NCBI GenBank assembly: GCA_964016885.1
Contig: OZ024741.1
Coordinates: 83,328,001 to 83,392,000 of the forward strand
Reading direction: 5' to 3'
Length of the DNA: 64,000 nt
From: Eledone cirrhosa
Taxonomy: Eukaryota
Numbering within the stretch: position 1 is the stretch's first letter; every line of letters begins with the position of its first letter. Positions 10,445 to 11,167 of this stretch are shown here, one piece after another. Position numbers and translations under genes: made by a program. The notes beneath the pieces were generated by a model. The model was given only the letters and a program-made list of their open reading frames with translations. It had not been told where the DNA came from and searched no databases.

Positions 10445-11167
10445 GTCTATTCGATTTTTTATATAGTTGATTATGCTAATTGGGAGAGGAAATGGTATTT
10501 ATTTTATCTCGTGATTCTATAGACATGTTTTAGCTCTGACTATTTAGTTTATTAACTTTTCATTGAGCCACAATGTGACCCGTTGCAAAACACGTATATG
10601 TATGTATATATATATATATGTAAACCTATAAACATATAATCTCCCATTAGGTTGAGATACAAATTTGGCTGTATTGTGCTGTGCTTTCTAGCAAATAGCC
10701 ACCAGTCGTAAGCAACTACCACACCCCTTCCAACCTGACCGCTCCTACTTCACGATTCTTAGCCATTTTGAATGTATTCTCGTCGCGATCACTTTGGAAA
10801 ATTTAATGTCTAGATTAGAGCAAACTCCTGAAGAGTCTGATGCTCGAATTTCCTAATATATTGGAAATCTCAAAATGCGGACGAAACCATGGTAGAGGTA
10901 ATTAAATGTAATCTCTTTTCTCCTAGTTTATTTTATACCTAATTCTGTTTAATTAACTGTATATCTGGGCGATTACGCTGTCTAAATATTCGATAAATAT
11001 TCTTTCGTAGCTGACGCGAAGGGCTAGTTTCGATTATTTGTTGGGGATTTCTTCATAGAAGCCTTATTCTTATAGCCTGGTCTATTCGATTTTTTATATA
11101 GACGATTACGCTAATTGGGAGAGGAAATGGTATATATTTTATCTGGTGATTCTATAGACATGTTTTA
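10445..11167 (+). repeat. Direct repeat with 635-bp period (10445-10532 ~ 11080-11167) enclosing a hammerhead
   Basis: gtctattcgattttttatatag...ctatagacatgtttta occurs twice; (TA)n on both sides. Confidence 0.8.
10824..10899 (+). ncRNA. Type I hammerhead ribozyme, canonical core
   Basis: ctc-CTGAAGA-gtctg...cggac-GAAA-ccatgg-TA-gag; palindromic CCATGG loop III, GUA triplet. Confidence 0.75.

Follow-up and report, generated by a model that had tools for sequence, protein, structure and literature searches.

In the 64,000-nucleotide stretch of DNA analysed here (the window), an ORF-free insert of ~0.73 kb spans 10445 to about 11172 within a TA microsatellite. We consider it likely that this insert is a decayed copy of a non-LTR retrozyme mobilised by Penelope-like elements (PLEs), and thus a non-autonomous PLE. 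The mover was probably one of the Hydra-clade PLEs, which target (TA)n and appear to be present in the window, and the template was likely an RNA circle or a tandem transcript. Membership of the non-LTR retrozymes is probable, not established, although none of the defining traits examined failed outright; the element is neither an autonomous PLE nor a plant LTR retrozyme. Its kind has already been published, as animal non-LTR retrozymes with a proposed dependence on PLEs, and the family is new. Statements on earlier work refer to the excerpts of the cited papers available to us. The insert amounts to 1.14 units, one complete unit and an 88-bp fraction, arranged as follows:

About 10394-10444, no strand: left (TA)n tract, the presumed insertion target, judging from the sequence.
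10445-10532, + strand: left 88-bp repeat, an additional copy of the unit's 3' end that is truncated 5' (pLTR-like fraction).
10533-11172, + strand: full non-coding unit of about 635-640 bp, ORF-free, 35% G+C (below 50%).
10812-10914, + strand: type I hammerhead motif, core at 10828-10834 and 10883-10886, predicted cut after 10894.
10818-10845, + strand: possible 5-bp pseudoknot between GAGCA (10818-10822) and UGCUC (10841-10845), linking the internal loops of stems I and II.
10846-10871, + strand: distal hairpin extending stem II, 8 bp (10846-10853/10863-10871), in which relatives show loose ends (10859/10860) and variants (10848-10866).
10886-10893, + strand: palindromic stem III/loop ACCAUGGU, which can pair with a second copy in a dimeric hammerhead (principle in PMC4209133).
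11080-11167, + strand: right 88-bp repeat, the unit's 3' end.
11168-11172, + strand: TGATG, the final unit-like bases ahead of the target; they match TTTTATGA(TA)n of one relative (a loose end in run X5, below).
About 11173-11269, no strand: right (TA)n tract, with (TG)n next.

Several claims of a first-pass annotation of this DNA are borne out by the layout. The terminal direct repeats that it described, 88 bp each with a 635-bp period, are identical at 83 of 88 positions (5 differences), and the (TA)n tracts lie on both sides at about 10394-10444 and 11173-11269. It had also reported the absence of an ORF: the longest stop-free stretch is 54 aa on the + strand and 65 aa on the - strand, the longest frame from a Met is 21 aa (+) or 31 aa (-) with the circular junction included, and a frame scan that covered the circular reading found no RT plus GIY-YIG ORF. 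The right end reaches ~5 nt beyond 11167 (TGATG) and blends into the TA tract, and no target-site duplication is readable within the flanking (TA)n. The left repeat lacks a TGA(TA)n piece that precedes GCTC in two relatives (loose ends at 10531 in X5 and 11161 in X6). Matches to Pol III A and B boxes in the element all carry one mismatch, with no A+B pair on the + strand; no tRNA was found in the window, nor any second copy of the element by blastn within its 64 kb.

Outside the window, the element belongs to a repeated family. Seven public sequencing runs share words with the window, each at most 30% of its words, and none is recorded as RNA. Four of the ten runs listed were compared with the element at 82% likeness: X1, X5 and X6 are contigs and X8 is raw RAD reads, X8 having the species label of X1 while X5 and X6 carry other organism labels. 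Relatives were found in 1,582 contigs of X1, 2,316 raw reads of X8, 18 contigs of X5 and 9 contigs of X6, so the single-copy sequence that the annotation had named as grounds for dropping its proposal is refuted. The X1 contigs comprise 260 at 99% identity or more, 493 at 95-99%, 581 at 90-95% and 248 under 90%. Relatives are mostly 82-95% alike to the window's copy, and the family is therefore diverse; the depth summed over the element in these runs is not a copy number. Details of relatives come from a subset of the records: 40 of the 128 variant rows, 24 of the 243 loose ends and 24 of the 1,623 pieces. The 24 pieces listed include neither the window's own copy nor a piece spanning the whole element, and no tandem array of two or more units or hammerheads was seen among the pieces listed. 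The back-joint 11167>10533 is not among the joints listed, and such reads may show up as overhangs. Two joints, 10482>11117 and 10496>11130, were rejected as circle signals, being produced by the 88-bp repeat itself. Exact 22- and 20-nt patterns from the element had no match in metagenome contigs or viral contigs.

The hammerhead sits in the interior of the element, its cut site lying outside both 88-bp repeats and 278 nt from the right end. The core letters are intact (CUGAAGA at 10828-10834, GAAA at 10883-10886). Stem II has 5 bp (10835-10839/10878-10882, one of them U-G) and continues through an internal loop into the distal hairpin; stem III consists of the 2 bp that close CAUG within the palindrome ACCAUGGU, followed by GUA and the predicted cut; and stem I has 3 bp, an A.G mismatch and 1 bp before a 6-bp distal helix (10812-10817/10909-10914). 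A motif descriptor matched the real element and 0 of 5,000 dinucleotide shuffles (both strands), a generous figure given that the descriptor was composed once the motif had been seen. The annotation had called this hammerhead canonical. The core, the extended stem II, the palindrome and the GUA site are all as it described, but an Rfam search of the element gave no hammerhead match at E<=10, and because Rfam misses the motif the word fits the core only.

Among relatives, no variant falls in the core (10828-10834 and 10883-10894) in 40 of the 128 variant rows. T10838 is C in 81 of 98 X8 reads, replacing the wobble U-G with C-G. The sequence of the distal hairpin varies, while G(A/G)TGCTC is kept ahead of it in three of the five loose ends listed at 10859-10860; two loose ends listed there still pair by hand with 10861-10871, at 8/9 and 10/10 pairs, the latter assuming the 10866 T variant (mixed consensus, agreement 0.58). 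In 297 of 299 reads position 10911 is T, which disrupts one pair of distal stem I as drawn if its partner stays the same; no compensating change occurs among the same 40 of 128 rows. One X1 contig reads GAGCG..CGCT across the putative pseudoknot, a two-sided change that also alters the first base of stem II; with this one compensating contig, a GAGCA/UGCUC pseudoknot is possible. Pseudoknotted hammerheads in which stems I and II make a Watson-Crick contact are known, the contact being predicted in about 40% of hammerheads across all three types (Perreault et al., 2011, PMC3088659). The candidate here differs in joining two internal loops, in a repeated animal element and with one contig behind it.

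Folding calculations are less favourable. The best hammerhead-compatible fold reaches -12.9 kcal/mol against -20.8 kcal/mol for a competing structure in which the core is buried (pseudoknot unscored), and this lowest-energy non-hammerhead fold, 7.9 kcal/mol lower, uses the same GAGCA/UGCUC pairing. Folded as a circle, the unit of this diverged copy is no better than shuffled sequence (z -0.18; 17 of 40 shuffles equally good), with modest structure in 10533-10810 (z -2.6) and none in 10895-11172 (z -0.3).

Junctions in relatives bear on what the unit is. They read unit end, short TA tract, unit start: one X5 contig has TTTTATGATATA immediately ahead of window position 10531 and then the unit start, and in one X6 contig right-end sequence is followed by a longer TA-rich tract and then by GCTCT. 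The ORF-free unit therefore also occurs head-to-tail elsewhere. The right end in the window (TTTTATGATG, then TA) matches the end form of relatives, and the internal junction (TTTTA|GCTC) is short by about 9 nt compared with theirs; the TA tract in relatives belongs either to the unit or to what remains of the target.

Such junctions through (TA)n also weigh against a plant-type LTR retrozyme, or a TRIM-like non-autonomous LTR element, whose LTRs would be the 88-bp repeats, an explanation that takes its appeal from the two terminal direct repeats flanking a non-coding interior and that we regard as very improbable. Plant LTR retrozymes do share non-coding sequence, terminal direct repeats, a hammerhead and a similar size with the element, but they carry a type III hammerhead in each LTR, a PBS and PPT, and 4-bp target-site duplications (PMC7229834; Li et al., 2026, bioRxiv 10.64898/2026.07.22.740005). 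Here the single motif is type I and interior, outside the repeats; the repeats start with GT and finish with TA, and no 4-bp duplication can be read.

The annotation had expected circularly permuted ends. Depth in the middle of the two terminal repeats is 241,438 and 238,027 in X1 (interior at most 90,112), 38 and 49 in X5 (interior at most 10) and 11 and 10 in X6 (interior at most 6); with the two repeat copies added, it stands about 3- to 8-fold above the best interior bin in all three contig runs. Contig depth thus leans towards a fixed, shared right end with variable left ends and not towards random permutation, although a better-conserved segment, or one common to other families, fits the excess equally well. 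As a common right end with variable left ends is the PLE pattern, an RNA-mediated origin is not refuted by this outcome. Piles of read ends in X8 were rejected as biological ends, as four of the five listed (10803, 10944, 10662 and 11113) fall exactly on AATT, like RAD restriction cuts, and X8 depth was therefore excluded from the analysis of ends.

The same data can be read in terms of an orphan 3' end, a solo pLTR in partial tandem that derives from an autonomous PLE, the ORF of which would stand upstream in the master copies, with no independent retrozyme RNA. The standard arrangement of PLEs is a partial tandem whose upstream copy is 5'-truncated, and they typically target (TA)n (PMC8557442), the terminal region is over-represented in all three contig runs, X6 contigs have other sequence ahead of 10455 and 11064, large classes of X8 reads (75-133 reads each) depart from the element at 10728-10773, and the window holds other solo PLE-type hammerheads. 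However, in the window copy and in two contigs of other runs the right end is followed by the start of the non-coding unit, so that an ORF would have no place there. The cut site also lies 278 nt from the end, clear of the 88-bp repeat, whereas in the Hydra-like copy at 28.6 kb the distance is about 50-60 nt, and loose ends listed at 10728 and 10736 resemble diverged unit sequence (10706-10735). We consider an orphan end unlikely. Of the two options left by the annotation, an independent retrozyme-like family or a solo pLTR, the former is thus the better supported by a repeated family, an ORF-free unit, a type I hammerhead and the junction in two contigs, and the latter is the less likely because of what follows the right end.

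The retrozyme reading would work through five steps. Master loci of two or more units would be transcribed. Paired hammerheads would cut after GUA, probably as dimers held by the palindromic stem III, freeing a ~640-nt monomer that may be circularised. A PLE endonuclease would then nick (TA)n, with reverse transcription starting inside the RNA near the later right end, 278 nt downstream of the cut site. The RT would copy leftward through the hammerhead junction for 1.14 units before stopping, which would create the 88-bp repeat. Lastly, the window copy, with one hammerhead and mutations of its own, would be a dead end. A cut linear monomer cannot be the template, because the insert is longer than one unit and neither of its ends is near the cut site: such a monomer would run from 10895 to 10894, whereas the insert ends 278 nt past the cut and measures 1.14 units, so the template was circular or exceeded a unit and the RT began internally. 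Copying beyond unit length from a circle has been proposed for PLEs (PMC4209133) and for retrozymes (PMC7229834). In the PAc system of an anole PLE, initiation in vitro is internal and downstream of the hammerhead, at a start site lacking homology to the target, and insertion in vitro does not require the hammerhead (PMC11167929).

With its single hammerhead, the insert is a solo (monomer) copy unable to release a monomer. Hammerheads with a short palindromic stem III cut well only as dimers (PMC4209133), and active retrozymes need two hammerheads, solo monomers having been described (Li et al., 2026); the window copy is for these reasons likely a dead end. The annotation's description of a complete element accordingly holds for the insertion and not for an active element by the two-hammerhead criterion of Li et al. 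(2026). Decay is visible in the repeats. At four of their five differences, reads back one copy (the left letter at 11102 in 12/12, 11103 in 12/12 and 11109 in 84/86; the right letter at 10499 in 7/7), as expected of repeats that were identical at insertion and decayed later. The Jukes-Cantor distance between them is 0.059 and, on an octopus scale in which 0.09 corresponds to 25 My (PMC13282606), this would make the element very roughly 8 My old, an age that depends on five events and on a scale that may not be the host's.

The neighbourhood is rich in related material. The element at 1-736 is also a unit and a fraction, with a 468-bp period and repeats identical at 267 of 268 positions. As a circle, 269-736 folds far better than shuffles (z -9.2 on the + strand, -4.4 on the - strand), and its hammerhead scores 37.7 bits in Rfam, below the gathering score of 52. 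With its clean type I hammerhead, it looks younger than the 10445-11172 copy and a better test case. The annotation had described the two elements as unrelated in sequence, which blastn supports (best match a TA-rich 23-mer, E 0.002), and as sharing an architecture, which holds for the part that can be seen, the left end of 1-736 being cut off by the window start.

That a second element, unrelated in sequence and ~10 kb away, shares the layout, the orientation and a right end bounded by TA argues against spread at the DNA level, in which a dispersed repeat or satellite monomer with an inherited hammerhead would move between TA tracts through duplication or unequal exchange, and the 88-bp repeat would have arisen by local duplication. 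Pairing-preserving hammerhead variants in relatives, few as the records are, likewise suggest selection on RNA. The unit has no excess structure, microsatellites are dense in the region, and Li et al. (2026) allow for local tandem amplification after a PLE has landed; even so, we hold DNA-level spread to be improbable.

Six further strict type I hammerheads occur in the window. Five type I hammerheads, at 3109 (-), 3233 (+), 32785, 44382 and 50630, have a long stem II and a self-complementary stem III and are likely solo PLE 3' ends; those at 3109 and 3233 are paired in inverted orientation, and a downstream tail is common to 3233 and 44382 (79% over 115 bp). Kinship (43% and 38% identity) links two decayed PLE ORFs, one at 15577-17173 (-) and the other at 26419-28141 (+). 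The second has CNCRDWGRC, matching the CxCx5C linker that defines the Hydra clade, nearly all members of which insert in (TA)n and carry hammerheads, and the first has an FDITMG..D...V.DLVG motif resembling Hydra proteins (PMC8557442). Both are labelled Hydra-like from motifs compared by eye; Pfam named one of 10 window ORFs, a LINE RT, and neither Hydra-like remnant, and protein homologue searches with the ORF remnant 16145-17020 were empty. The remnant at 24898-28606 has an inverted 5' copy, ends in (TA)n and bears a 3' hammerhead at about 28505-28552 with a U3-A8 core variant (TTGAGAA ... GAAACGTACGTA). Another PLE remnant, at 11669-14792, has 594-bp inverted ends and a GIY-YIG fragment (13182-13592) that we take to be Neptune-like, and 36021-39198 (-) is a broken non-LTR retrotransposon (RVT_1 match, E 2.5e-18).

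Other repeats crowd the same region. A TA-bounded family is found at 9840-10018, 10308-10394 and 45252-45472, the first two being inverted copies directly left of the element with which they have the left (TA)n tract in common. A 55-75-bp repeat has five copies in both orientations (10110-10165, 11377-11452, 17055-17125, 17297-17372 and 17917-17972), often adjoins (TG)n or (TA)n and in one case breaks the Hydra-like RT frame. The word TGTT(T/C) stands 6-9 nt ahead of the TA run at four right ends (736, 11172, 28606 and about 15010), and is a candidate signal common to both non-coding elements and both Hydra-like copies, though a weak one in AT-rich DNA. ACATGTTTT was rejected as a signal common to the right end and the Hydra-like tails: its 5 matches, against 2.1 expected, include two in the element's own repeat, which is too weak. 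No homology of the element to any PLE end was found in the window, or by five short motifs in the supplement of PMC8557442.

Among known systems, metazoan non-LTR retrozymes are non-coding and low in G+C, have a type I hammerhead whose palindromic stem III is short, and occur in many copies as head-to-tail units in genomes that also hold PLEs (PMC7229834; Li et al., 2026), all as in the element. Its 635 bp lies within the 51-972 bp of Li et al. (2026), but above the 150-450 bp of Cervera and de la Pena (2020, PMC7229834). It differs from them in its 1.14 units, (TA)n flanks, stem II extended by an internal loop and hairpin, and possible pseudoknot; retrozyme circles are described as highly self-paired (PMC7229834), whereas this copy has no excess self-pairing. 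Hydra-1_Obim of Octopus bimaculoides (Craig et al., 2021, PMC8557442) resembles it in (TA)n insertion, in a sense-strand type I hammerhead upstream of the right end, in its partial-tandem layout and in a stem III one base apart (GAA-ACCA-A-TGGT against GAA-ACCA-TGGT). By eye, however, its 3' end has no homology to the element past the hammerhead core, and Hydra-clade PLEs have an RT plus GIY-YIG ORF and a hammerhead inside the pLTR, neither of which the element has. Together with the microsatellite content, the resemblance to Hydra elements suggests an octopus host.

Several points count against the retrozyme reading: the lack of an array among the pieces seen and of excess structure in the circle, the fold that buries the core, the T at 10911, a length above 150-450 bp, the lack of homology to PLE ends, the dispensable PAc hammerhead, the cleavage of one of nine predicted dimers in Li et al. 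(2026, bioRxiv 10.64898/2026.07.22.740005) and a Hydra label given by eye. A more specific scheme, which we regard as doubtful, would have several unrelated RNA circles of 470-640 nt, the family of 10445-11172 with a pseudoknotted hammerhead, anneal through their own UA tract to (TA)n nicked by a Hydra-clade PLE, start at a fixed point and roll past one unit. Priming by a UA tract is weakened by the anole PLE, which starts at a site without homology to the target and does not need its hammerhead in vitro (PMC11167929).

Our literature search found no report of retrozymes in octopus or other cephalopods, although supplements and Repbase may hold one; the excerpts of the O. vulgaris repeat annotation available to us (PMC13282606) contain 0 mentions of ribozyme or retrozyme. 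The family makes testable how PLEs choose their start point on RNA, whether the template is a circle and what role PLE hammerheads play. With a high-copy family, both ends visible in a defined (TA)n target and a likely partner clade in the same window, the distribution of ends in an assembly should by itself answer these questions. If circles targeted to microsatellites are indeed the source, these insertions would be natural footprints, in the thousands, of PLE priming on circular templates, probably in a cephalopod.
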